DNA of 49,048 bases. It comes from Oscillospiraceae bacterium. GTDB taxonomy: Bacteria > Bacillota > Clostridia > Oscillospirales > Oscillospiraceae. The stretch spans positions 1 to 49,048 of the forward strand of contig JAITNK010000098.1 in assembly GCA_031290515.1 (NCBI GenBank), read 5' to 3'. Under the pieces are notes generated by a model. The model was not told the DNA's origin. It did no database searches and saw only the letters and a program-made list of their open reading frames with translations. Of the stretch, positions 6,843-15,411 are shown piece by piece. Made by a program: the position numbers and the translations under genes. Within the stretch, counting starts at the first letter, position 1, and each line of letters opens with the position of its first letter.

Positions 6843-8083
6843 GAGTATTTCTTTACGAACTCCGCAAAATCTGGAACCTGAAAGCGGTACTTATAATCTC
6901 CGCGCTCGGCGCGCTCGCGTATTTCGCGCTGAGCTACGGTCTGATTGCGAGCTACAACGAAGGACACTACTCTACCGGCTACTACGTCAGCGAGATGTTC
7001 CGCCGTTACGGCGCGACGCTCGACGCGGAGGAATACGCCGACTTCGACTTTGCCGGGCGCAAAGCCGAACTTGAGCGCGAAATTACCGAACTGATCGCCG
7101 AATATCCGGTTTTCGCGGAGTACGGCGTCGAAACGCTTGAAGACTATGAGCGCGTCAGCGGTGAAATCTGGGAAGAGCACACGGTCCGGAACCCGGACGG
7201 CTCCGGCTATCTGCCCGACCCGTGGATTTCTGAGTTGCAGGAGATGAGTTTCCTGATTAACGACCTCAACGGCCCGTACTTTAAGCTTATGAACCTGACC
7301 ACAGTAGAGGAATACTACAACCCGCTTGACAAAGAATACGCCGTGTCGTGGTACGTCTCCCCGGAATCCGAAAACGGCAACAGCTATCGCCCGGCGCAGC
7401 TCCGCCGCGCCGAGGCGTTCGCCGCAAGACCGGAGGTGGATCTGATTCCGTACAATCTGACTACGACGTTCTCCGCGTTTGCGATGGTTGTCCTGATATT
7501 CTCGGTCGGCGCGTCGGTCATACTCGCCGCGCCCGCCGTAGTCACCGACCGCCAGCGGAAAGTGTTCGCCCTGCAATACTCGTCGCAAAAGGGGCGGCGC
7601 GTGTTCACCGCGCAGACCGCAGCCGCGCTTTTCTCCGCGTTCGCGCTGACGCTCGCGCTCGTCGCGGCGAGCTACGCGGCGTTTCTGACGCAAACCGACG
7701 CTTCGGACTATCTCGGAGTCCGCATTACGAGTACGCTTATGTCGTTTTATATGTGGGATTTCACGCTTTTGCAGTATTTTCTCCTGCTCGCGGGAATGAC
7801 CGTATCCGTCGCCGCCGGCGCGGCGGGACTCGCGTTTGTGCTCGCGCGGCACTCGAACAGCGTCGTGACGCTGATGCTCAAGGCCGCGCCCGCCGCCGCC
7901 GGCTGCGCCGCGCTCGGCGCGCTCGCGGTGAACTACGCAACCTCAAACTGGAACTATGTGTTCGGTGAAATTTTCAACGGCAAGCGCGACCTGCCGGAGG
8001 TGTGGGTCTGCGCCGCGCTCGCGGTCGCCGGACTGATTCCGGCGGTCGTCACCGCGGTGCGCGAGCGGCGGCTGGACGTGTAG
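6839..8083 (+). CDS. ABC-2-type permease-like membrane protein (paralog 3)
   Basis: ATGA overlap. MRVFLYELRKIWNLKAVL... The shared internal block TDRQRKVFALQYSSQKGRRVF matches TDRARRVRALQYPSKTGRRVF in paralog 1. Confidence 0.7.
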   Translation: MRVFLYELRKIWNLKAVLIISALGALAYFALSYGLIASYNEGHYSTGYYVSEMFRRYGATLDAEEYADFDFAGRKAELEREITELIAEYPVFAEYGVETLEDYERVSGEIWEEHTVRNPDGSGYLPDPWISELQEMSFLINDLNGPYFKLMNLTTVEEYYNPLDKEYAVSWYVSPESENGNSYRPAQLRRAEAFAARPEVDLIPYNLTTTFSAFAMVVLIFSVGASVILAAPAVVTDRQRKVFALQYSSQKGRRVFTAQTAAALFSAFALTLALVAASYAAFLTQTDASDYLGVRITSTLMSFYMWDFTLLQYFLLLAGMTVSVAAGAAGLAFVLARHSNSVVTLMLKAAPAAAGCAALGALAVNYATSNWNYVFGEIFNGKRDLPEVWVCAALAVAGLIPAVVTAVRERRLDV

Positions 8084-8108
8084 AGTAACAGCATAATAAT
8101 ACATCGGC

Positions 8109-8140
8109 GGCGTTACGGTACTTATCCGTAACGCCGTTTG
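8109..8140. terminator. Bidirectional terminator hairpin between convergent genes
   Basis: 10-bp stem GGCGTTACGG / CCGTAACGCC with a 7-nt loop, followed by GTTTG. Lies between the stops at 8083 (+) and 8144 (-). Confidence 0.6.
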
Positions 8141-8143
8141 CGG

Positions 8144-8695
8144 TTACTCTCCCCCGTTCAGCCACACGGCGAGACTGCGCACTCCCTCAAGCGCGGTCTC
8201 GTCCTCCGCCGCCGGAACCGTGTCGGTGTTCATCGACAGCACGGTGTGCGCGCCGAACCCGGAGGCGTTCATCATTCGGAACAGCACCGCGGACATACGC
8301 ACCGCGCCGTTTTCGTTGCCCTTGCCGCCGCCTACGAGAATCAGCCCCGCGCGTTTCGGGCGCAGTACAAACGGGTCGTTCAGCTCGTACTTCGCGTTGC
8401 GCTGCACCTGAAACCGGCTCGCGATGTTCATCATTTGCCCGGGCAGCGTCGAATAGTACACCGGCGAGGCGATAACGGCATTGTCGAAATCGTCGCCGTA
8501 GATTGCGCGCATATCGTCGTCGATAGCGCAGCCTTTGACCCGCGCGCAGGCGCGGCAGTCCACGCACGGCGACAGCTTCGCGCGGTACGCCGACAGCTCC
8601 GCGACCTCGCCGGAAAGGTGCGCGCGCAGCTCCCGGACGAGCGCGGCGGTGTCGCCGTTCACGCGCGGCGAGCCGTTGATGATGAGCGTTTTCAA
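8144..8695 (-). CDS. Flavodoxin-like fold NAD(P)H-dependent FMN reductase / iron-sulfur flavoprotein family
   Basis: MKTLIINGSPRVNGDT... and a CVDCRAC cysteine cluster. TTG start 8 nt after GGAGG. Confidence 0.8.
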   Translation of the reverse strand: MKTLIINGSPRVNGDTAALVRELRAHLSGEVAELSAYRAKLSPCVDCRACARVKGCAIDDDMRAIYGDDFDNAVIASPVYYSTLPGQMMNIASRFQVQRNAKYELNDPFVLRPKRAGLILVGGGKGNENGAVRMSAVLFRMMNASGFGAHTVLSMNTDTVPAAEDETALEGVRSLAVWLNGGE

Positions 8696-8753
8696 GGGCG
8701 GTACCTCCGTATTGTGGTTTGTGTGCTGTGATTATACCCGGTTTTTGAAATTA

Positions 8754-8809
8754 TTTCAACATATTTCGCAAAACCCCTTGACACGCCCCCCCCCGTCATA
8801 TGTTATTAT
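8754..8809 (+). promoter_or_regulatory. Promoter module A: conserved upstream block, TTGACA, C9 tract, TGtTATTAT (20-nt spacer)
   Basis: TTGACA 8778-8783, CG + C9 (8786-8794) + GTCATATGT, extended -10 TGT-TATTAT 8801-8809. The 24 nt upstream of -35 match the second copy at 26229-26252 (minus) at 20 of 24 positions. Confidence 0.5.
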
Positions 8810-8838
8810 GATATATCAAATATTTGGAGGAATCAGCA

Positions 8839-8925
8839 ATGAAAAAAGCAATCTCTAAGACAGTCTCCCTGCTCCTGGCACTTTTCGCCGCAAACTTGAT
8901 TATTGCGGTTCTTGCCGCCGTGTGA
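8839..8925 (+). CDS. Unannotated 28-aa single-pass membrane peptide (micro-ORF)
   Basis: GGAGG 8826-8830 lies 8 nt before ATG 8839. Product MKKAISKTVSLLLALFAANLIIAVLAAV, stop TGA 8923-8925. Too short for the ORF track. Confidence 0.4.
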   Translation: MKKAISKTVSLLLALFAANLIIAVLAAV

Positions 8926-8955
8926 TACAATAGACGCAAAAAAGGCGGTACTGTT

Positions 8956-11058
8956 ATGACTAACGTAGAACTGCTCACCTCGCGGTTCGCCGCGCTCCCG
9001 CGCATCGGGGAAACGGGACCGCAGTCCGGCTTCAACGGAAAGCGTATGACCGCGCTCGGGCGGCGTACGCGCCTGATTCACGCCGCGCTGTGCGTAATCG
9101 GGCTTGCGCCGTTTGCGCTGTGGCTGCTGTACCTGCTGAAGCTCGTCAGCTTTAAGGTGCCGCCGCAGCTCGTCGCGGTCGGCTTCGGGCTTGTCGTGCC
9201 GGGCGGCGGCTTCATTGCCTGCGGCGAGCCGGTGACGGTCGCAATCGGACTGTTTATCTGCTTCTGGCTCTGGAAAAAGCGCGGAATGATGATTCAGGAC
9301 TTCCTCGGCAGCTTTATGGGAATCGTCGGGTTCTGGGCGCTCGGCGCAGCCGGCGGACTGCTCGCGTTCGGGTGGTACTCGTGGGACTACGCCGCGTTCG
9401 GTCTCGCGCCTTTCGGCTACGCGCCGTGGGGGTACGCCGCCGCGGTCGGAACCGCGTTCGCGCTGTTCGTGCCGTACGAGCTTCAGGTGCGCCGTATGTA
9501 TAAGCAGATGTCGGCGGCGCGCGACGAGCGTCTGCCGCTGTTCGACGACGCGGTTGCGGAGCTTGACGCGGCGACCGGCGACCGCAGCATTGTCGGAGAA
9601 AAGGAATTCCGGCAAAACGGCGGCGGCGTCCGGAGCGGTGATACGGCGAAAGAACCCGGCGCGGACGAACTCGACGACGAGCAGCTGCTCGCCGCGCGGT
9701 ATCTGCTCGAGGCGACCGTGCGCGAGAAGGGCGACTTCGACGGCTTCGAGCATTTGTTCGGACTCGCCGACTACCGCTATCAGCTCTCGGTGTACGGTTA
9801 CGGGCTTATGCTGCTTCACGCGAAGTATCTGCCGAACTTCGAGGGGTACCTCAAAAAAGCGCACAGATTCCTTATCGAGTCGTACTCCGACCCGCGCACC
9901 TGCGGCTACTGGGCGAAGCAGGCGAAAGTCGGATACCTGTCGAACAACCCCGACCCGATTGTCAAAGCAAACGTAATGCTCTCCGGCTGGATGATGCCGG
10001 TCGTCGCCGGATACCGCGACCAGTACGGCGACGACGAGTACGAGAAAGAGGCTTCGATTCGCTTTCAGCCGTTCGCCGACAAACCGGAAGAGACGTACGA
10101 CTACAACTCCGCGGGCGTGTTCGGCGTACTGTACCGGCAGTATAAGAATCACGAATACCCGTATATGCTCATTCCGTGCGAACCGCACGTCGCGTTTCCC
10201 GCCTGCAACTCCGTCGCGCTGCTCGGTATGCTCGTCTACGACCGCGACCACGGCACGGACTACTGCGCCGGCTTCTGGGACGAACTGTACGACAACCTGC
10301 AGTCCGACTTCATCGAAATCGACGGTACTATGGCTCTGCGCCGGCAGTATCAGTACGGACTGCGGCACCTGCCCTCGTCGCAAATCGGCTATATGCCGCT
10401 CGCGGACGTTCAGAACTATATGCACTTTTCCGCGATATTCCCCGGTCTCGCGAGACGGTGCTACGCGCTCGTGCGGAAGACTCTGCTGTCAATCGACGCA
10501 GACGGCGCGGCGCAGGTGAACGGTCAGCCGTGGGATATGATGTTCAATATGTTCACGATGAAACCCGACCCCTCGACGCAGATCGCGATGCTCGAGCTTA
10601 CCGCCGCGGAGTACGGCGACCTTCCGGTGTACGACGCGCTGCGCGTCGCCGAGTCGCGGTTCCTCGCGAAGAGCAAAGACCCGACCTCGTTCAAGTTTAA
10701 GGACGTAAACTCGCTGACAGTCGCCTATATCGCGCTCGCGCGGCTGATTAAAAAAGGCTACTGGTCGGACGTTATTCTGCGCGGTATGCCGGAGACTTCC
10801 AAAACGGGTCCCGTGCTGACCGACTGTCCGTTCCCGGACGTTATTCCTGCGAAAGCGTCGAGTTCCGGAGACGACCTCGACCTCGTGCTCACGACCTCCG
10901 GCGAGCCGGTCGCCGCCGGAATCAGAATCGAACGCCTAAAGCCGGGCGCGCGGTACGCGTACGGCGCGGGCGCGTTCACTGCGGACGCGGACGGGGCGGC
11001 GACGCTTACCGTCGAAGTCGGACGGCGCACCGCGATACATATCGTTCCGGAGGCGTAA
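8956..11058 (+). CDS. 700-aa membrane protein: about 6 N-terminal TM helices plus a soluble domain of about 500 aa of unassigned family
   Basis: Long ORF with ordinary amino-acid composition, unlike the Arg-rich antisense ORF 8833-10425. Hydrophobic N-terminal 190 aa. I have only a weak unverified impression of an alpha/alpha-toroid-type domain. Confidence 0.75.
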   Translation: MTNVELLTSRFAALPRIGETGPQSGFNGKRMTALGRRTRLIHAALCVIGLAPFALWLLYLLKLVSFKVPPQLVAVGFGLVVPGGGFIACGEPVTVAIGLFICFWLWKKRGMMIQDFLGSFMGIVGFWALGAAGGLLAFGWYSWDYAAFGLAPFGYAPWGYAAAVGTAFALFVPYELQVRRMYKQMSAARDERLPLFDDAVAELDAATGDRSIVGEKEFRQNGGGVRSGDTAKEPGADELDDEQLLAARYLLEATVREKGDFDGFEHLFGLADYRYQLSVYGYGLMLLHAKYLPNFEGYLKKAHRFLIESYSDPRTCGYWAKQAKVGYLSNNPDPIVKANVMLSGWMMPVVAGYRDQYGDDEYEKEASIRFQPFADKPEETYDYNSAGVFGVLYRQYKNHEYPYMLIPCEPHVAFPACNSVALLGMLVYDRDHGTDYCAGFWDELYDNLQSDFIEIDGTMALRRQYQYGLRHLPSSQIGYMPLADVQNYMHFSAIFPGLARRCYALVRKTLLSIDADGAAQVNGQPWDMMFNMFTMKPDPSTQIAMLELTAAEYGDLPVYDALRVAESRFLAKSKDPTSFKFKDVNSLTVAYIALARLIKKGYWSDVILRGMPETSKTGPVLTDCPFPDVIPAKASSSGDDLDLVLTTSGEPVAAGIRIERLKPGARYAYGAGAFTADADGAATLTVEVGRRTAIHIVPEA

Positions 11059-11059
11059 G

Positions 11060-11209
11060 ATGCTGTGCTGTATAATCGCGGCGGCGTTTATCGTGCGCTA
11101 CGTCGCGCGGGCGGGTACGCTCAAACGCTATCTCGGCTTCGGAAGCGACCCGGAGCCGGAGCCGTTCGGCTGGGACGAATACTGCGAGCTTGACGAGTTC
11201 GACAGCTGA
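11060..11209 (+). CDS. Unannotated 49-aa peptide: one TM helix plus an acidic tail
   Basis: GGAGG 11049-11053 lies 6 nt before ATG 11060, one nt after the upstream TAA. Product MLCCIIAAAFIVRYVARAGTLKRYLGFGSDPEPEPFGWDEYCELDEFDS. Its TGA overlaps the next ATG (TGATG). Confidence 0.5.
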   Translation: MLCCIIAAAFIVRYVARAGTLKRYLGFGSDPEPEPFGWDEYCELDEFDS

Positions 11210-12192
11210 TGAAACCTCTCCGAATCGCGGTGGTCGCGGCGTTCTTCGCGTCCGTCGCCGTGACCGCGCTGACGTACGTTTTCCGCCAGGTTCACGCGCT
11301 GCACCCCGCGCACATTGCGCTCACGAACGCGACGTTTTTGCTGATTGCCGCGTATCTCGCAAAGAGCGCGAAGCTTGCGTCGCTCGCGGGACTGCGCGAG
11401 CTTCGCGCGAACTTCCCGCCGTATGACGGGACTGCGTACGGGCGCGAGACCGAGCTTCGCCCGAACAGCGTCGCGCAAACCGACTGTGAAATCACGCGCG
11501 GCGAGGTCGTCTCCGACGAGTCACCGCTTTCCGGACGGCGCGCGCGCGTTACAAAAACCGCCGGCGACAGGCTGTACCGCGGCAGTATAATCGTTTCCGG
11601 CGCGGCGGCGGCGCGCGGAACCCGGCAGCGGCGGTACGTCGCGGACGTTATGCCGGAGGGCGGCGCGGTTTTCAACGTCTGCGCAGCGTTTCTGGCGCGC
11701 AGCGGAATTTATGTGCGCGGCGAATACGTTCTGCGAAACATCGCGCCGTCGCGCAAGCTTACGGTGCGGTGCGCCGGCGCGAACCGCGCCGGACTTGCGA
11801 AAACGCGCGAAACGCTTGAGCGTATGGGCGTTACGCTCGCGCTCGAAGAAACCGGTCCGGAGTCCGAAATCGCGACCGGACGGCAGTACCGGCTCTGCGG
11901 ATTCGCGGAGTTTGATTCGTATCACGACGCCGTAATCACGCACGACAAGATTACGCATCTGCTCAAACTCGTCTACGCCGCAAGGGTTTACCGGCGCGCG
12001 CGTGCACCCGTACGGTTCATAACCGTCGCCGCTGCCGGCTTCGCGTTCGGCGCGCTGTGCGGATTTAAGCTGTTCGCGCTCGCCGCGCTGCCGTTCGCGG
12101 TCGCGGGAGCCGTGCAGCTCGCATTGCTGCGCCGGCTTGAAAAGAACCTCGCGCGGCGCGTCACTTTTGAGCTTGTCGCAAACACAAAGTGA
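11209..12192 (+). CDS. Miniaturised P1B-type-ATPase-derived membrane protein lacking all catalytic motifs
   Basis: DESPLSGRRARVTKTAGDRLYRGSIIVSG resembles DES-LTGES-PV-K-GD-V-G of the A-domain. ARSGIYVRGEYVLRNIAPSRKLTVRCAGA resembles GILIKG...V-FDKTGT. LERMGVTLALEETGPESEIA resembles L...GI..VMLTGDN..TA. DAVITHDKITHLLKLVYAARVYRR resembles DIVL..D.L..I..AI.LSR.T. Flanking TM helices are present. Confidence 0.6.
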   Translation: MKPLRIAVVAAFFASVAVTALTYVFRQVHALHPAHIALTNATFLLIAAYLAKSAKLASLAGLRELRANFPPYDGTAYGRETELRPNSVAQTDCEITRGEVVSDESPLSGRRARVTKTAGDRLYRGSIIVSGAAAARGTRQRRYVADVMPEGGAVFNVCAAFLARSGIYVRGEYVLRNIAPSRKLTVRCAGANRAGLAKTRETLERMGVTLALEETGPESEIATGRQYRLCGFAEFDSYHDAVITHDKITHLLKLVYAARVYRRARAPVRFITVAAAGFAFGALCGFKLFALAALPFAVAGAVQLALLRRLEKNLARRVTFELVANTK

Positions 12193-12239
12193 GCGCAACC
12201 GGACTCCCCGCAAAATCGCCGCCCGGCGGCGCAAATACG

Positions 12240-12268
12240 TTGACAAACCTCCGCTAAAGTGGTACAAT
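12240..12268 (+). promoter_or_regulatory. sigma-A-type promoter TTGACA-17-TGgTACAAT (distal)
   Basis: TTGACA 12240-12245 and TACAAT 12263-12268 with a TG at -15/-14. Confidence 0.45.
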
Positions 12269-12410
12269 ATACAAAATTTAGCAAGCGGCAGGCGAAATAA
12301 TGAACTTCCGGCAGTCCCGCATCCCGCGCAGGCGGCGTTCCGCCGCAGCCCGGACGCAGTACGGATTCATCCGTCCGGGCGGCGTCTATTCAAATTATTA
12401 TATAAAACGC

Positions 12411-12439
12411 TTGAAAACCGGAGATGTTTGCGCTATAAT
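12411..12439 (+). promoter_or_regulatory. sigma-A-type promoter TTGAAA-17-TATAAT (proximal) for the hybrid kinase gene
   Basis: TTGAAA 12411-12416 and TATAAT 12434-12439, 56 nt upstream of ATG 12496. Confidence 0.5.
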
Positions 12440-12495
12440 GTTCAAGCAGGCAACGCTTCTTCCGGTCGGATAATTAAGCGGGAGGTTACACGCGA

Positions 12496-15411
12496 ATGTT
12501 CAAAAAATGGAATCTGAAAGCTAAGATATTCGTTTTTGTCACGGTCGTCGTCGTCGTGTCGCAAATCGCCATTACGTCGATGGTCGCCGCGCAGACGGTC
12601 TCGCTCACGAAGCGAGACGCATACGATCTTGCCGAGGTCACAGCCGAAAAATTTAAGAACGAAATCAAGTCGGAGATACAGGGCGCGCGGATTACAGCCG
12701 AGACTCTCTCGACCGTGATGGAGACGCTCAAGGCGAACGGCGTTAACGACCGCGAGCTGATGAACGAGGTTCTCAAAAACGCGCTCGCGTTCAAGGAGTA
12801 CATTACCGCGTTCTGCGTCGCCTACACCGTGGACGGACTCGACGGTATGGACTCGTTTTACGCCGGAGAGCCGGGTTCCATCTACAGTACAGACGGGCGT
12901 TACGCGCCCTACTGGAACAAGTTCGGCGACAGCATTGACGTGGAACCGCTTCAGGAAGCCTATCTCGACGAAGGCGTCACGCTCGACCAAGTTCCCGCGC
13001 TTCAGGAAGCCGGTCTCCCCTACGGTCAGACGCTTGACGAGCAGGACTGGTGGTACGTCCCCGAAGCAAACTGGGAAAACGGCGTCGTCGAATACATTAC
13101 GGAGCCTTACGCGTTTATGCTTCAGGGACAGAACGTCATTCTCGAAAGTCTGATTTTCTCTTTCGGCGACGCGGACGGCAATTTCCTCGGTCTCGTCTCG
13201 TCCGACATTGTGCTTGAGAACTTCCAGGCTATGGTAGAGCGCGTTAACCCGCAGAGTCAGGGCGGCTTTACCGAGATTTTCTCCAACGCCGGTTTCGTAA
13301 TCGCGCACCCGGACAGAGAGTACCTCGGTACGGACATCGAGGACGTGCTGAACGGCAGCGGCGACGCGTCCGCCGCCGCGAGCCTCGGCGACGTGAGAGC
13401 CGCGATTGCCGCCGGCGAATCCTATATTCACAGCGGAACCGACTATTACACCGTCTATATGCCGATCAGCTTCAGCGATGTCACCACGCCGTGGTCTGTC
13501 GCCGTGAGTATTCCTATGTCGGAAGTGCTCGGCAAAGCCGCGTCTATCAGAAACTACATTCTGACGATTTCGGCGATTGCCGCCGTCATAGTGATTGCGG
13601 TGCTGTACTTCATCTCGAGGAATATCACAGCCCCGATACTCGCGCTCGCGGACGCCGCGAAAGTCCTCGGCGACGGCAACTTCGAGGCGGAGATTCCGAG
13701 TACGGACGCGGGCGGCGAAATCGGCGTGCTTGCCCGCGCGGCAAAGTCTATGGCGGAGAAAATCAGCGACCTCGTCACAAAACTGCGTCACAACGCAGAA
13801 GAGCTTGAGGACAAGAACCGCAGTCTCGTCGCGCTCAACCTCGAGCTTGTAGAGGCTAAAGACCGCGCCGAAAGCTCAAACCGCGCAAAGAGCGACTTCC
13901 TGTCTAATATGTCGCACGAAATGCGCACGCCGCTCAACGCAATCATCGGTATGACCGCAATCGGCAAGCGCGCTCCGGATACCGAGAAGAAAGACTATTC
14001 GTTCGGCAAAATCGAGAACGCGTCCGCGCACCTGCTCGGCGTTATCAGCGATATTCTCGATATGTCCAAAATCTAGGCGAACAAGCTCGAACTCTCGCCG
14101 CTTGATTTCAGTCTCGACAAGGTCATTCAAAAGGTCTCCAACGTCATCGGATTCCGGGTCGAGGAGAAGAACGTCGCGTTCCGCGTCTCGGTCGATAAGG
14201 CTATCCCGCAGCGAATCGTCGGGGACGACCAGCGGCTCGCGCAGGTGCTTACGAATCTGCTGTCAAACGCCGTGAAATTCACTCCGGAGGACGGCGAGGT
14301 GTCGCTCGGCGTTACGCTGCTCGCGGAAAACGATTCGCTGTGCCGGCTGCAATTCTCCGTTACCGACAACGGTATCGGAATCAGCGCGGAACAGCAGACG
14401 CGTCTGTTCACGTCGTTCCAGCAGGCGGACAATTCCACCTCGCGGCGGTTCGGCGGCACCGGACTCGGTCTGTCAATCTCCAAGCGCATCGTCGAGCTTA
14501 TGGGCGGCGACATTCGCGTCGAGTCGGAACTCGGACACGGTTCCGTGTTCACCTTTACGATTAACGCGGAGCGCGGCAAAGCCGACCACCCGAGTCTGCT
14601 GAACCCCGGCGTGAACTGGAAAAACGTAAGCATACTCGCGGTGGACGACGACCCGGAGACGCTTGCGTACTTCCGCGAACTTGCGCTGACGCTCGGAATA
14701 AAGCTCGACGCGGCTTCCGATGCGGAAGAGGCGCGCGCGATACTCGACCGCGGCGTTCTGCACGACATTTATTTCCTCGACTATAAAATGCCGGGTATGA
14801 GCGGTCTCGAACTTTGCCGGACGATTAAGGACTCGCGCGCCGACAAAACCGCGGTCGCGATTATCTCCGCCGCCGACTGGAGCTCAATCTCGGAACACGC
14901 GAAAACCGCCGGCGTCGATCGCTTTGTCTCAAAACCGCTGCACTCGTCCGACATTGAGGACTGCATAAACGAATTCCTCGGCAACACCGCTCCGGCGGAG
15001 GAAACCGCTTCGGACGACGAGCCGGACAACTTCAAAGGACACACGATTCTGCTCGCGGAGGACGTTGAGATTAACCGCGAAATCGTCGTCGCGCTGCTTG
15101 AGCCGACGGAGGTTACTGTGGACTGCGCCGAAAACGGCGCGGAAGCCGTCCGCCTGTTTACGGAGAACCCGGAACGCTACGACCTGATTCTTATGGACGT
15201 GCAAATGCCGCAGATGGACGGACTTGAGGCGACGCGCGTCATACGCGCGCTTGACGTTCCGGAGGCGAAAACCGTCCCGATAGTCGCGCTTACGGCGAAC
15301 GTATTCCGCGACGATGTTGAAAAGTGCCGCGAAGCCGGTATGAACAGTCATCTCGGCAAGCCGCTGATTCTCGACGCGCTGCTCGCGGAGCTTCGCAAGT
15401 ACTGCGTGTAG
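12496..15411 (+). pseudogene. Hybrid sensor histidine kinase (TM, dCache, HAMP, HisKA, HATPase_c, 2 x REC) interrupted by one in-frame TAG at 14074-14076
   Basis: Track ORFs 12496-14076 and 14245-15411 are in the same frame. Reading through gives [19 protein letters not shown], where kinases have SKIEAGKLEL. H-box [14 protein letters not shown]-box LLSNAVKFT, G-boxes, and two receiver domains (ILAVDDD..., ILLAEDVEINREI...DLILMDVQMPQMDG). Confidence 0.75.

Follow-up and report, generated by a model that had tools for sequence, protein, structure and literature searches.

A conserved clostridial gene module joins a membrane-anchored Ldi-family enzyme to a two-cysteine micro-protein and a copper-ATPase relic: hints that this enzyme class needs helper subunits, possibly involving copper

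A contig of 49,048 nucleotides from an Oscillospiraceae bacterium (JAITNK010000098.1 of GenBank assembly GCA_031290515.1; the whole stretch was analysed and is called the window below) carries four open reading frames (ORFs) on the same strand, ORF1 to ORF4, and raises the question of what joins a 28-aa peptide, a 700-aa polytopic protein, a 49-aa micro-protein and a 327-aa protein that derives from a P-type ATPase and has lost its catalytic residues. The initial annotation of the locus described it accurately: coordinates and junctions were re-read in the sequence and all agree (Table 1), with 30 nt between ORF1 and ORF2, TAAgATG between ORF2 and ORF3, and an overlap TGATG between ORF3 and ORF4. 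Its interpretation was only partly right, going astray on the 28-mer, on the family of ORF2 and on the partner of the micro-protein. With moderate confidence, we favour the explanation that the locus encodes an enzyme of the type of linalool isomerase (Lis) together with accessory membrane subunits that ancestrally handled copper and/or the thiol redox state. The locus would then be a three-gene module, ORF2-ORF3-ORF4, with ORF1 outside it. Conserved synteny in relatives had been proposed as a check on such a unit, and ORF2, ORF3 and ORF4 were found as a syntenic module in dozens of contigs.

The 700-aa protein, which had been left without a family, is a Lis-type membrane-anchored member of the linalool dehydratase/isomerase (Ldi) family. 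It matches Pfam PF18566 (Ldi) over residues 274-564 with 182.4 bits (cutoff 26.1, E 2e-53), and the same domain is present in 91 of 91 homologues, which are mostly 650-700 aa long and come from metagenome-assembled genomes (MAGs) of Oscillospiraceae, Lachnospiraceae, Treponema and a few other lineages. A family profile built on 35 diverse homologues, on which the column counts given below also rest, matches the Ldi chains in the PDB (5hlr/5g1u) at E 1e-18 (HMMER) and aligns the CEPxxxFxxCN block of ORF2 with CEPDNYFVQCN of Ldi, the site of the Ldi catalytic cysteines. In Ldi two reduced cysteines take part in catalysis and are essential by mutagenesis (C170/C179, 5G1U numbering; PMC6600392); C408, E409, C417 and N418 of the ORF2 family are found in 35 of 35 sequences, and C316 and C624 are conserved as well. 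The structural comparison gives the same family. With the AlphaFold2 (AF2) model of ORF2 (pLDDT 90.9, pTM 0.90) as query, the 27 best Foldseek matches are Ldi structures without exception (E 5e-10 to 6e-9, TM-score on the target 0.65-0.70, about 20% identity), while the second tier, GH127 HypBA1 (E ~1e-3) followed by N-acylglucosamine epimerase, GH88 and GH76, lies far behind.

ORF2 thus has in common with Ldi of Castellaniella defragrans (5hlr, 5g1u, 5i3t) the (α/α)6 barrel, a Cys pair nine residues apart, an equivalent of M125 (M341 in ORF2) and the YDR-HGT and AxE-GD motifs, which are conserved in the ORF2 family. Ldi carries a signal peptide and forms soluble homopentamers in the periplasm, with a disulfide between C48 and C101 (PMC6600392). 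By contrast, ORF2 has no signal peptide and carries a multi-helix N-terminal anchor instead; it is membrane-anchored and probably faces the cytoplasm. It furthermore has an additional C-terminal β-sandwich, and Trp stands where Ldi has His129. The first 100 residues of Ldi do not align with its profile. The earlier count of about six transmembrane (TM) helices gives way to five hydrophobic segments, best read as four TM helices and one re-entrant PGGG loop. In the AF2 model these are the TM helices 43-60, 92-105, 120-137 and 157-171 and the re-entrant VPGGGF loop at 70-89, a broken helix, and they are followed by a stalk helix of about 50 residues; G78, P82, G83 and A88 of the anchor are invariant. 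Over 35 sequences the mean number of Lys and Arg residues is 8.2 in the N-terminus, 2.3 in loop 106-119 and 7.8 in the stalk, compared with 0.6 in loop 61-69 and 0.9 in loop 138-156, so that the proposed inside loops sum to 18.3 and the outside loops to 1.5 if residues 70-105 are taken as one crossing. This distribution, together with a Cys content of 1.8% in the soluble part, argues for four crossings plus a re-entrant loop and favours a cytoplasmic barrel. A 23-residue insertion at residues 211-233 (SIVGEKEFRQNGGGVRSGDTAKE; window 9586-9654), found in 0 of 34 aligned homologues and predicted to be disordered (pLDDT below 50), accounts for the length of ORF2, 700 aa as against about 675 aa in relatives.

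The architecture matches that published for Lis (EC 5.4.4.4; ENO87364) of Thauera linaloolentis 47Lol, a protein of 644 aa with four N-terminal TM helices and a predicted cytosolic Ldi-like domain (PMC4791888). Compared by described architecture, Lis and ORF2 are both two-domain proteins, some 640-700 aa long, in which about four TM helices anchor the N-terminal part and the C-terminal part is Ldi-like, and for both a dependence on reduced cysteines is expected. They differ in that no accessory genes have been reported for Lis, whereas the ORF2 gene is followed by a micro-ORF and the ATPase relic, and in that Thauera is a denitrifier, whereas the window host is a strict anaerobe, Oscillospiraceae-like and probably from a termite gut or a similar habitat.

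Since the barrel keeps the Cys-x8-Cys acid/base pair, ORF2 would most likely hydrate, dehydrate or 1,3-isomerise a membrane-partitioning substrate, either an allylic alcohol or an alkene. Terpenoid or polyprenol-like alcohols are candidates, and import as a glycoside with later release of the alcohol is possible. Among 108 neighbours at 22 clostridial loci the commonest are ABC transporter components, FAD_binding_2 flavoproteins (7), old yellow enzyme (OYE)-type reductases (4) and short-chain dehydrogenases/reductases (3), and genes for molybdenum-dependent aldehyde oxidoreductases also occur near clostridial Ldi loci. In Lachnospiraceae and Treponema the Ldi-type gene stands directly after sugar-type ABC transporter genes, at loci that also carry DUF624, a YesM/YesN-like two-component system, GH3, GH1 or a sulfatase. 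The Rhodococcus Ldi locus has neighbours for alcohol dehydrogenase, aldehyde dehydrogenase, P450 and ferredoxin. In Aureimonas (L069:3754-6903; L numbers denote related loci) uppS lies directly upstream of the Ldi gene and a dgkA-like kinase gene after the micro-ORF, and on two other contigs (L065:2146-5901; the upstream regions of L036 and L060) UbiA and two ABC1 kinases are encoded upstream. Such isoprenoid-lipid genes beside membrane-anchored Ldi genes hint at polyprenol-type substrates, and the various neighbourhoods would be reconciled if the substrate were a lipophilic allylic (isoprenoid) alcohol that in some hosts arrives as a glycoside.

The same sugar-transporter and glycosidase context could be read differently, with ORF2 as a carbohydrate-active protein, either an unsaturated-sugar hydratase analogous to GH88/GH105 or a GH127-like cysteine glycosidase acting on imported glycans. 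This is unlikely. GH127 HypBA1, epimerase, GH88 and GH76 do appear as second-tier structural neighbours, and GH127 shares with ORF2 the combination of (α/α)6 barrel and β-sandwich and is known for cysteine-based catalysis with a Cys-rich metal site. However, Ldi is by far the better match both by sequence and by structure, HypBA1 reaching only a TM-score of ~0.25 and 10% identity, and the Ldi Cys pair, YDR-HGT and AxE-GD are conserved in ORF2, the Ldi-specific motifs being absent from GH127. Furthermore, the contexts in Rhodococcus, Aureimonas and the UbiA/ABC1 contigs are terpenoid or isoprenoid, and the sugar context is also explained if the substrate is the aglycone of an imported terpenyl glycoside.

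ORF3 encodes a real micro-protein, as had been supposed, and belongs to a conserved family with homologues beyond the window. Its features are an M1-x-C3-C4 start (MxCC), one TM helix, a K/R-rich juxtamembrane stretch and an acidic tail, YLGF...FGWDEYCELDEFDS; M1, C3 and C4 are invariant in the family alignment. From the K/R residues that follow the hydrophobic stretch, an outward-facing Cys pair and a cytoplasmic acidic tail are predicted. The peptide is conserved in at least 16 loci (phmmer E 1e-10 to 1e-17 against a small database), and at every sufficiently long Oscillospiraceae locus a homologue of 37-53 aa stands directly after an Ldi-type gene or before an ATPase-like gene. An independent metagenome scan, using peptide patterns derived from 8 closer ORF3 sequences, gave 23 loci; with the exception of L048, either an ORF4-like gene directly follows the peptide or the contig ends too early, and at most of them an Ldi-type gene is adjacent on the same or the opposite strand. 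The clostridial type forms 12 clusters among 1.84e9 (1.84 billion) representatives, all of 48-50 aa. Assignment of ORF3 to CcoS/FixS or another known family was rejected, as no Pfam or NCBIfam match was obtained at E <= 1.

The range of the micro-protein extends well outside the Clostridia. An MxCC ORF lies directly after, or within ~1.5 kb of, nearly every membrane-anchored Ldi gene for which downstream sequence is available, in Oscillospiraceae, Lachnospiraceae, Treponema, Tardiphaga, Steroidobacteraceae, Alteromonadaceae, Rhodococcus opacus, Novosphingobium resinovorum and Aureimonas, and after membrane-anchored Ldi genes in further metagenome contigs. The strict MxCC motif gave 43 matches in 1.43 M six-frame residues, and among the matches listed all are at the expected place. 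In cultured strains, unannotated MxCC ORFs were found in Rhodococcus opacus DSM 44186 (MACCVLIALLIATV; L067:8478-8588, NZ_CP082159.1), Novosphingobium resinovorum SA1 (MSCCILAALLIAHI; L068 from about 7345, NZ_CP017076.1) and Aureimonas sp. AU20 (MACCILAGLAFGAAL; L069 from 6377, NZ_CP006369.1), all three in plasmid records and downstream of an Ldi-family ‘hypothetical protein’. No MxCC ORF was found near periplasmic-type Ldi homologues at the loci inspected. One such homologue, in a Pseudomonadales MAG (L031:7902-10268), has a signal peptide and neither an anchor nor an MxCC ORF nearby, and is directly followed by a gene for a DsbA-like thioredoxin-fold protein with a FACIPC motif; a shorter Ldi homologue on an Agrobacterium vitis plasmid (L070:5028-7101), also with no MxCC ORF nearby, has an SCO-family gene directly downstream. 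In addition, ruminal_MAG_449, a rumen Oscillospiraceae genome with the full module at L017, encodes a second Ldi-type paralogue (L021:5821-7848) that is accompanied by no micro-ORF, DsbD_2 or ATPase and has FAD-type and OYE-type reductase-like genes downstream.

Which protein does the peptide serve? Tiny single-pass proteins of ~30-50 aa beside a P-type ATPase are familiar from CcoI-CcoS (FixI-FixS, ccoGHIS), KdpF-KdpB and sarcolipin-SERCA, and in the case of CcoI/CcoS another membrane enzyme depends for its maturation on such a pair, a Cu(I) P1B-ATPase with its tiny membrane partner. Unlike CcoS, ORF3 is encoded upstream of the ATPase, is defined by M-x-C-C and tracks the Ldi gene. In Treponema Ldi loci the MxCC ORF is present and no ATPase is found, and the ATPase is absent beside the MxCC/Ldi pair in Proteobacteria and Actinobacteria as well. 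The view of the micro-protein as a KdpF- or sarcolipin-like partner of the ATPase is therefore not supported, and ORF3 is taken to be primarily a partner of the Ldi-type protein, since MxCC follows the Ldi gene without an ATPase in other phyla. In the favoured explanation ORF3 would be a near-universal single-pass partner of membrane-anchored Ldi enzymes, and ORF3 and ORF4 together would form an accessory membrane unit required for the assembly or activity of ORF2, whose ancestral task may have been to deal with copper, with the redox state of the Cys pair, or with both. The published behaviour of Lis is consistent with such a missing partner, as recombinant Lis, full-length or without its TM anchor, is inactive in E. 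coli, while Lis activity needs a reductant and is irreversibly killed by detergents (PMC4791888).

An alternative with a larger complex had been proposed, in which all four products, including the 28-mer, assemble stoichiometrically in the membrane and the small peptides play the part of KdpF or sarcolipin beside the ATPase scaffold. The tight junctions and the Shine-Dalgarno (SD) sites fit the coupled translation that this would involve: ORF1 is preceded at 8 nt by a strong GGAGG (8826-8830), and ORF3 at 6 nt by a GGAGG inside ORF2 (11049-11053). In Clostridia, furthermore, ORF3 is always directly upstream of the ATPase or its remnant, and the YLGF...EYCELD tail of ORF3 is confined to lineages with an ATPase or remnant. 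Nevertheless, we regard this complex as improbable. MxCC occurs with an Ldi-type gene and without the ATPase in Treponema, Proteobacteria and Actinobacteria, a complex of unknown function no longer describes a locus whose ORF2 belongs to the Ldi/Lis family, and ORF1 is found only in the window, so that the 28-mer cannot be counted as part of a conserved unit. No homologue of ORF1 was obtained by phmmer in any related locus, and no comparable small ORF was seen upstream of the Ldi gene in ~25 related loci inspected; ORF1 was rejected as a module member on these grounds, its lack of conservation making membership doubtful.

The last gene of the module, ORF4, is derived from a P1B-ATPase and lacks the catalytic residues, a point on which alignment and Foldseek agree with the initial annotation. 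Pfam PF00122 falls just short (27.6 bits, cutoff 28.1), NCBIfam IB-type models match at E 5e-4 and Pfam Hydrolase does not match. The AF2 model (pLDDT 81.6) retrieves CopA (7r0g/4bbj, E 1e-8), ZntA and KdpB as best matches, and the CopA A domain 2hc8 superposes on it at an rmsd of 2.2 Å over 94 columns. ORF4 also aligns collinearly with full-length ATPases that occupy the same position in related loci. It retains TM-A, TM-B (equivalent to M2), remnants of the A and P domains, M5 and M6, and has lost, relative to these full-length relatives, M3/M4 with CPC, DKTGT, the N domain, TGD, GDGxND, YN and MxxSS, the last two being absent from M5/M6 although the helices are kept. At the position of DKTGT it reads KLTVRCAGAN, where L018, L034 and L019 read VVFDKTGTLT, and TGE has become SGR (DESPLSGRRARV vs DESGLTGESRPA in a full-length relative). 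With the catalytic and ion-binding motifs lost, ORF4 cannot be phosphorylated or pump. Compared with Cu(I) P1B-1 ATPases of the CopA type (3rfu, 4bbj, 7r0g), with which it shares an MA-like helix, M2, partial A and P domains, M5 and M6, it lacks the HMA domain, M1 and the intramembrane metal ligands and has gained a His ladder (H28, H32 and H35), where full-length relatives have YFEA/FYES. No functional Cu ATPase was found elsewhere in the window among the ten large ORFs scanned.

In some relatives the ATPase gene is complete. At Lachnospiraceae-type loci the Ldi-type gene is followed in turn by those for DsbD_2 (HCxxMCGG and LPCG motifs), the micro-protein and a complete ATPase, the last with HMA CxxC, TGE, CPC, DKTGT, an N domain with HP, TGD, GDGxND, YN and MSLSS, a motif set that is, judged by sequence, the Cu(I) P1B-1 signature. 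In deeper-branching Clostridia a complete Cu(I) ATPase and DsbD_2 accompany the enzyme and micro-protein genes. In the window lineage the pump has lost every catalytic and ion-binding element, yet purifying selection keeps it as a 4-TM protein, which has acquired a His ladder on its predicted outer side. Factors that assemble the copper centres of haem-copper oxidases recur in the same place in other bacteria, beside or between the Ldi-type gene and the MxCC ORF. On the Rhodococcus opacus plasmid pRop44186_a a Caa3_CtaG gene (E 3e-39), its end overlapped by the MACC micro-ORF, follows the Ldi-type gene (product WP_147437027.1); on an Alteromonadaceae MAG contig (L026) CopC-like and CopD genes lie between the Ldi-type gene and the MACC micro-ORF. 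The window itself has no CtaG, CopC, CopD or SCO and only the relic of an analogous ATPase, and no oxidase genes were found in the related loci inspected, some hosts of which are probably strict anaerobes. Copper-handling genes number only a few per genome, and by a rough estimate the recurrence of three unrelated copper families in the same slot in three phyla is very unlikely to be due to chance.

A bolder version of the favoured explanation would make Lis-type membrane (de)hydratases and isomerases obligate hetero-oligomers with the MxCC micro-protein, whose outer-face Cys pair would carry Cu(I) or a dithiol under redox control. Proteins similar to oxidase assembly factors (P1B-1 ATPase and DsbD_2, CopC/CopD, CtaG) would install it. 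We offer this only tentatively and consider it doubtful. If true, membrane enzymes that depend on copper or are gated by it would form a new class, present in strict anaerobes too, and ORF4 would be a conserved pseudo-P-type-ATPase kept as a metal-binding chaperone or scaffold after loss of the pump. We know of no earlier conserved pseudo-P-type-ATPase.

Several observations weigh against the favoured explanation, and in particular against its copper component. Outside the Clostridia each type of copper neighbour rests on one locus, the CopC-like match of L026 lies below the Pfam cutoff (21 vs 23.3 bits; CopD is above its own), and several proteobacterial loci have no copper gene nearby. With a cytoplasmic barrel, a link to a Cu exporter, CopC or DsbD_2, which act across the membrane, must run via the micro-protein. 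The soluble Ldi crystal structures contain, to our knowledge, no metal, so that a copper cofactor would be unprecedented for this fold. Catalysis by Ldi has been described as purely Cys-based acid/base chemistry (PMC6600392). No fusion of ORF3 to ORF2 or ORF4 was found among the 91 ORF2 homologues and 12 ORF3 clusters, and the physical association of ORF2, ORF3 and ORF4 is inferred. As to the reaction, ORF2 has W345 at the position of Ldi H129 in the NIMYKGH motif, an active-site residue with a catalytic role; Trp is found in 33 of 35 family members, His being kept in periplasmic-type homologues, and the chemistry may therefore differ from that of Ldi. The neighbourhoods are heterogeneous, with reductases of the flavoenzyme kind, ABC transporters for sugars accompanied by GH3, and genes of isoprenoid-lipid metabolism. 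Those flanking the module in the window are uninformative: besides housekeeping genes they encode an ABC transporter whose specificity is not apparent, a hybrid sensor kinase and a divergent protein resembling FMN reductases.

If copper is taken as the function itself, the module could be a device against copper or thiol stress, in which both the Ldi-like protein and the MxCC peptide serve to bind Cu(I) or to buffer it, without any catabolic role. The recurrence of Cu ATPase, DsbD_2, CopC/CopD and CtaG as neighbours would suit such a device, as would the SCO or DsbA-like genes that adjoin periplasmic-type homologues, the conserved C316, C408, C417 and C624 of ORF2 and the His ladder of the remnants. 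Yet the sole characterised relatives, Ldi and Lis, are catabolic enzymes, the loci sit in catabolic or transport operons and not in cop/cso regulons, and the pump has been discarded in the window lineage, so that we give this explanation a low probability and retain that of an enzyme with accessory subunits.

The ATPase gene exists in a graded series of forms, from complete pumps to 4-TM remnants (Table 1). Loss of the N domain alone is seen in P1B-1 ATPases at L017:10883-12841, L018:3397-5304 and L019:10764-12647, which keep HMA CxxC, TGE, CPC, DKTGT, GDGxND, YN and MSLSS; their occurrence in both Oscillospiraceae- and Lachnospiraceae-type loci suggests repeated loss. In window-type remnants TGE is degenerate and M5/M6 lack YN and MxxSS. 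A C-terminal K-L-S-F-E-K-V motif is kept from the full-length down to the smallest forms, and at least three His within the 16 residues before TM-B are found in 20 of 22 distinct remnants. The ORF4 model rests on 6 sequences, to which a homologue search with the ORF4 profile added two; these 6, which share ~40% identity, have 66 invariant columns. For remnant pairs with unsaturated synonymous divergence (dS) the ratio of nonsynonymous to synonymous divergence (dN/dS) lies between 0.15 and 0.36, one of these pairs having a dS of 0.076. Purifying selection thus acts on the remnants, and they are not decaying. The remnant of one lineage, at L002:8311-9375 (identical to L054 and L006), carries six tandem copies of DDHASH(G/E)(E/G)SAPV (the DDHASHGESAPV repeat) in the loop between its first two TM helices, a His/Asp-rich insertion that looks metal-binding and is predicted to lie at the outer face.

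Variable truncation in relatives had been named beforehand as a sign of plain gene decay, in which case ORF4 would be a dying copper-pump pseudogene and its position beside the Ldi gene meaningless. Lengths do vary literally, from 247 to 735 aa, and all catalytic motifs are gone from the window copy, but the variation consists of stepwise domain loss in ORFs that are intact in each size class and in many diverged genomes. The dN/dS values and conserved motifs led to rejection of ORF4 as a plain pseudogene, and the invariant columns, the persistence of K-L-S-F-E-K-V, the gain of the His ladder in remnants and the survival of the peptide-remnant pair even where it is inverted relative to the Ldi gene (L012, L046, L058) make decay very unlikely.

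Equally hard to credit is that the micro-protein is the substrate, its N-terminal Cys pair being modified by the Ldi-like barrel, for instance S-alkylated by an allylic (terpenoid) cation as in RiPP formation or lipidation. The invariant M-x-C-C and its obligatory adjacency to the enzyme gene across phyla would suit a substrate, a covalent thio-terpene intermediate has been proposed for Ldi (PMC6600392), and other (α/α)6 barrels (protein prenyltransferases, LanC) alkylate cysteines. Against this, LanC and prenyltransferases are absent from the top structural matches, and the predicted topology has the barrel and the Cys pair on opposite membrane faces. The locus has neither protease nor exporter genes, and the hydrophobic part of the peptide has the character of a TM helix.

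The claim that no system of this composition has been described holds for the sources searched: public annotations of the homologues are all ‘hypothetical protein’ or an automatic label, and the literature on PF18566, on Ldi homologues in gut bacteria, on truncated or pseudo P1B-ATPases and on FUPA families yielded nothing describing it. Ldi and Lis are known already; the MxCC partner family, the association with copper factors and the conserved pseudo-ATPase appear neither in the literature searched nor in database annotation. Together they hint at an enzyme class that needs helper subunits, possibly with copper. A missing MxCC partner and metal-handling factor could explain why recombinant Lis is inactive, and the idea of the MxCC partner is directly testable in cultured strains (Rhodococcus opacus, Novosphingobium resinovorum, Aureimonas). 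Since Ldi-type enzymes are sought for alkene and alcohol biocatalysis, knowing the required partners has practical value. The occurrence of three unrelated copper families beside a fold thought to be cofactor-free is a paradox that points to a metal or redox requirement or to a new logic of copper protection for thiol enzymes. The natural deletion series of a P-type ATPase, from the complete pump to 4-TM remnants, is furthermore an unusual case of pseudoenzyme evolution in a transporter family.

Table 1. Coordinates of the ORF1-ORF4 locus in the window, and forms of the ATPase gene with the loci in which they occur
Feature	Position or locus	Strand	Description
Promoter-like module	8778-8809	+	TTGACA 8778-8783, C-run in spacer, extended -10 TGtTATTAT 8801-8809
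ORF1	8839-8925	+	28-aa hydrophobic peptide MKKAISKTVSLLLALFAANLIIAVLAAV; sequence reading
ORF2	8956-11058	+	700 aa, Lis-type membrane-anchored Ldi-family member; Pfam, profile, AF2/Foldseek
ORF2 residues 1-210	8956-9585	+	Conserved cytoplasmic N-terminus (IPRIEETGP), membrane anchor, charged stalk helix (predicted)
ORF2 residues 235-617	9658-10806	+	Ldi-type (α/α)6 barrel; C408 10177-10179, C417 10204-10206
ORF2 residues 620-698	10813-11049	+	C-terminal β-sandwich; AF2 strands, pLDDT above 90
ORF3	11060-11209	+	49-aa MxCC micro-protein; conservation across loci
ORF4	11209-12192	+	327 aa, dead 4-TM Cu(I)-type P1B-ATPase relic; alignment, Foldseek
ORF4 residues 28-35	11290-11313	+	‘His ladder’ H-A-L-H-P-A-H, predicted outer end of TM-B
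ORF4 residues 80-245	11446-11943	+	A-domain remnant (β-strands 80-137), P-domain remnant GIYVRG...TRETLERMGVTL...DAVITHDKITHLLKLVY; no phosphorylation site
Complete ATPase, 711-735 aa	L034, L062, L063		HMA, CPC, DKTGT, YN, MSLSS present
ATPase without N domain only, about 610-650 aa	L017, L018, L019		
P domain lost, about 360 aa	L016		Keeps A domain, M3/M4 (CPC to SPS), last TM helix
Window type, about 310-327 aa	Window, L001, L003, L005, L007		Without M3/M4, DKTGT, N domain, TGD, GDGxND
A domain lost as well, about 250-350 aa	L002, L004, L008, L009, L010, L012		

Some minor features of the window may be added. The hybrid sensor kinase downstream of the module is split by one in-frame stop at 14074-14076 into ORFs 12496-14076 and 14245-15411 (+), the first with dCache-HAMP-HisKA and the second, in the continuing frame, with HATPase_c and two receiver domains; it reads SKI*ANKLEL where HisKA proteins normally have SKIEA-KLEL, and the stop could reflect a pseudogene, a sequencing error or a recoded codon. 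On the opposite strand of ORF2 a 530-aa ORF (8833-10425, -), Arg- and Val-rich and without homology support, is the kind of shadow ORF expected at 60-63% GC. No structured RNA or riboswitch was found in the leader or junctions, with no Rfam match at E <= 0.1 across 8000-13000.

The poly-C promoter module ahead of ORF1, noted earlier, is real, with TTGACA-CG-C9 from 8778 followed by the extended -10. The pattern TTGACANNCCCCCCC has 2 matches in the window, at 8778 (+) and 26214 (-), as against 0.02 expected, and the second promoter-like copy (26228-26190, -) shows the same layout of TTGACA, two bases, 9-10 C and an extended -10 TGnTAT(T/A)AT. A scan with the strict sigma-70 consensus did not call the module at 8778-8809, because its -35/-10 spacing is 20 nt. 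The next promoter-like site after the operon lies at 12240-12268, ahead of the sensor kinase.

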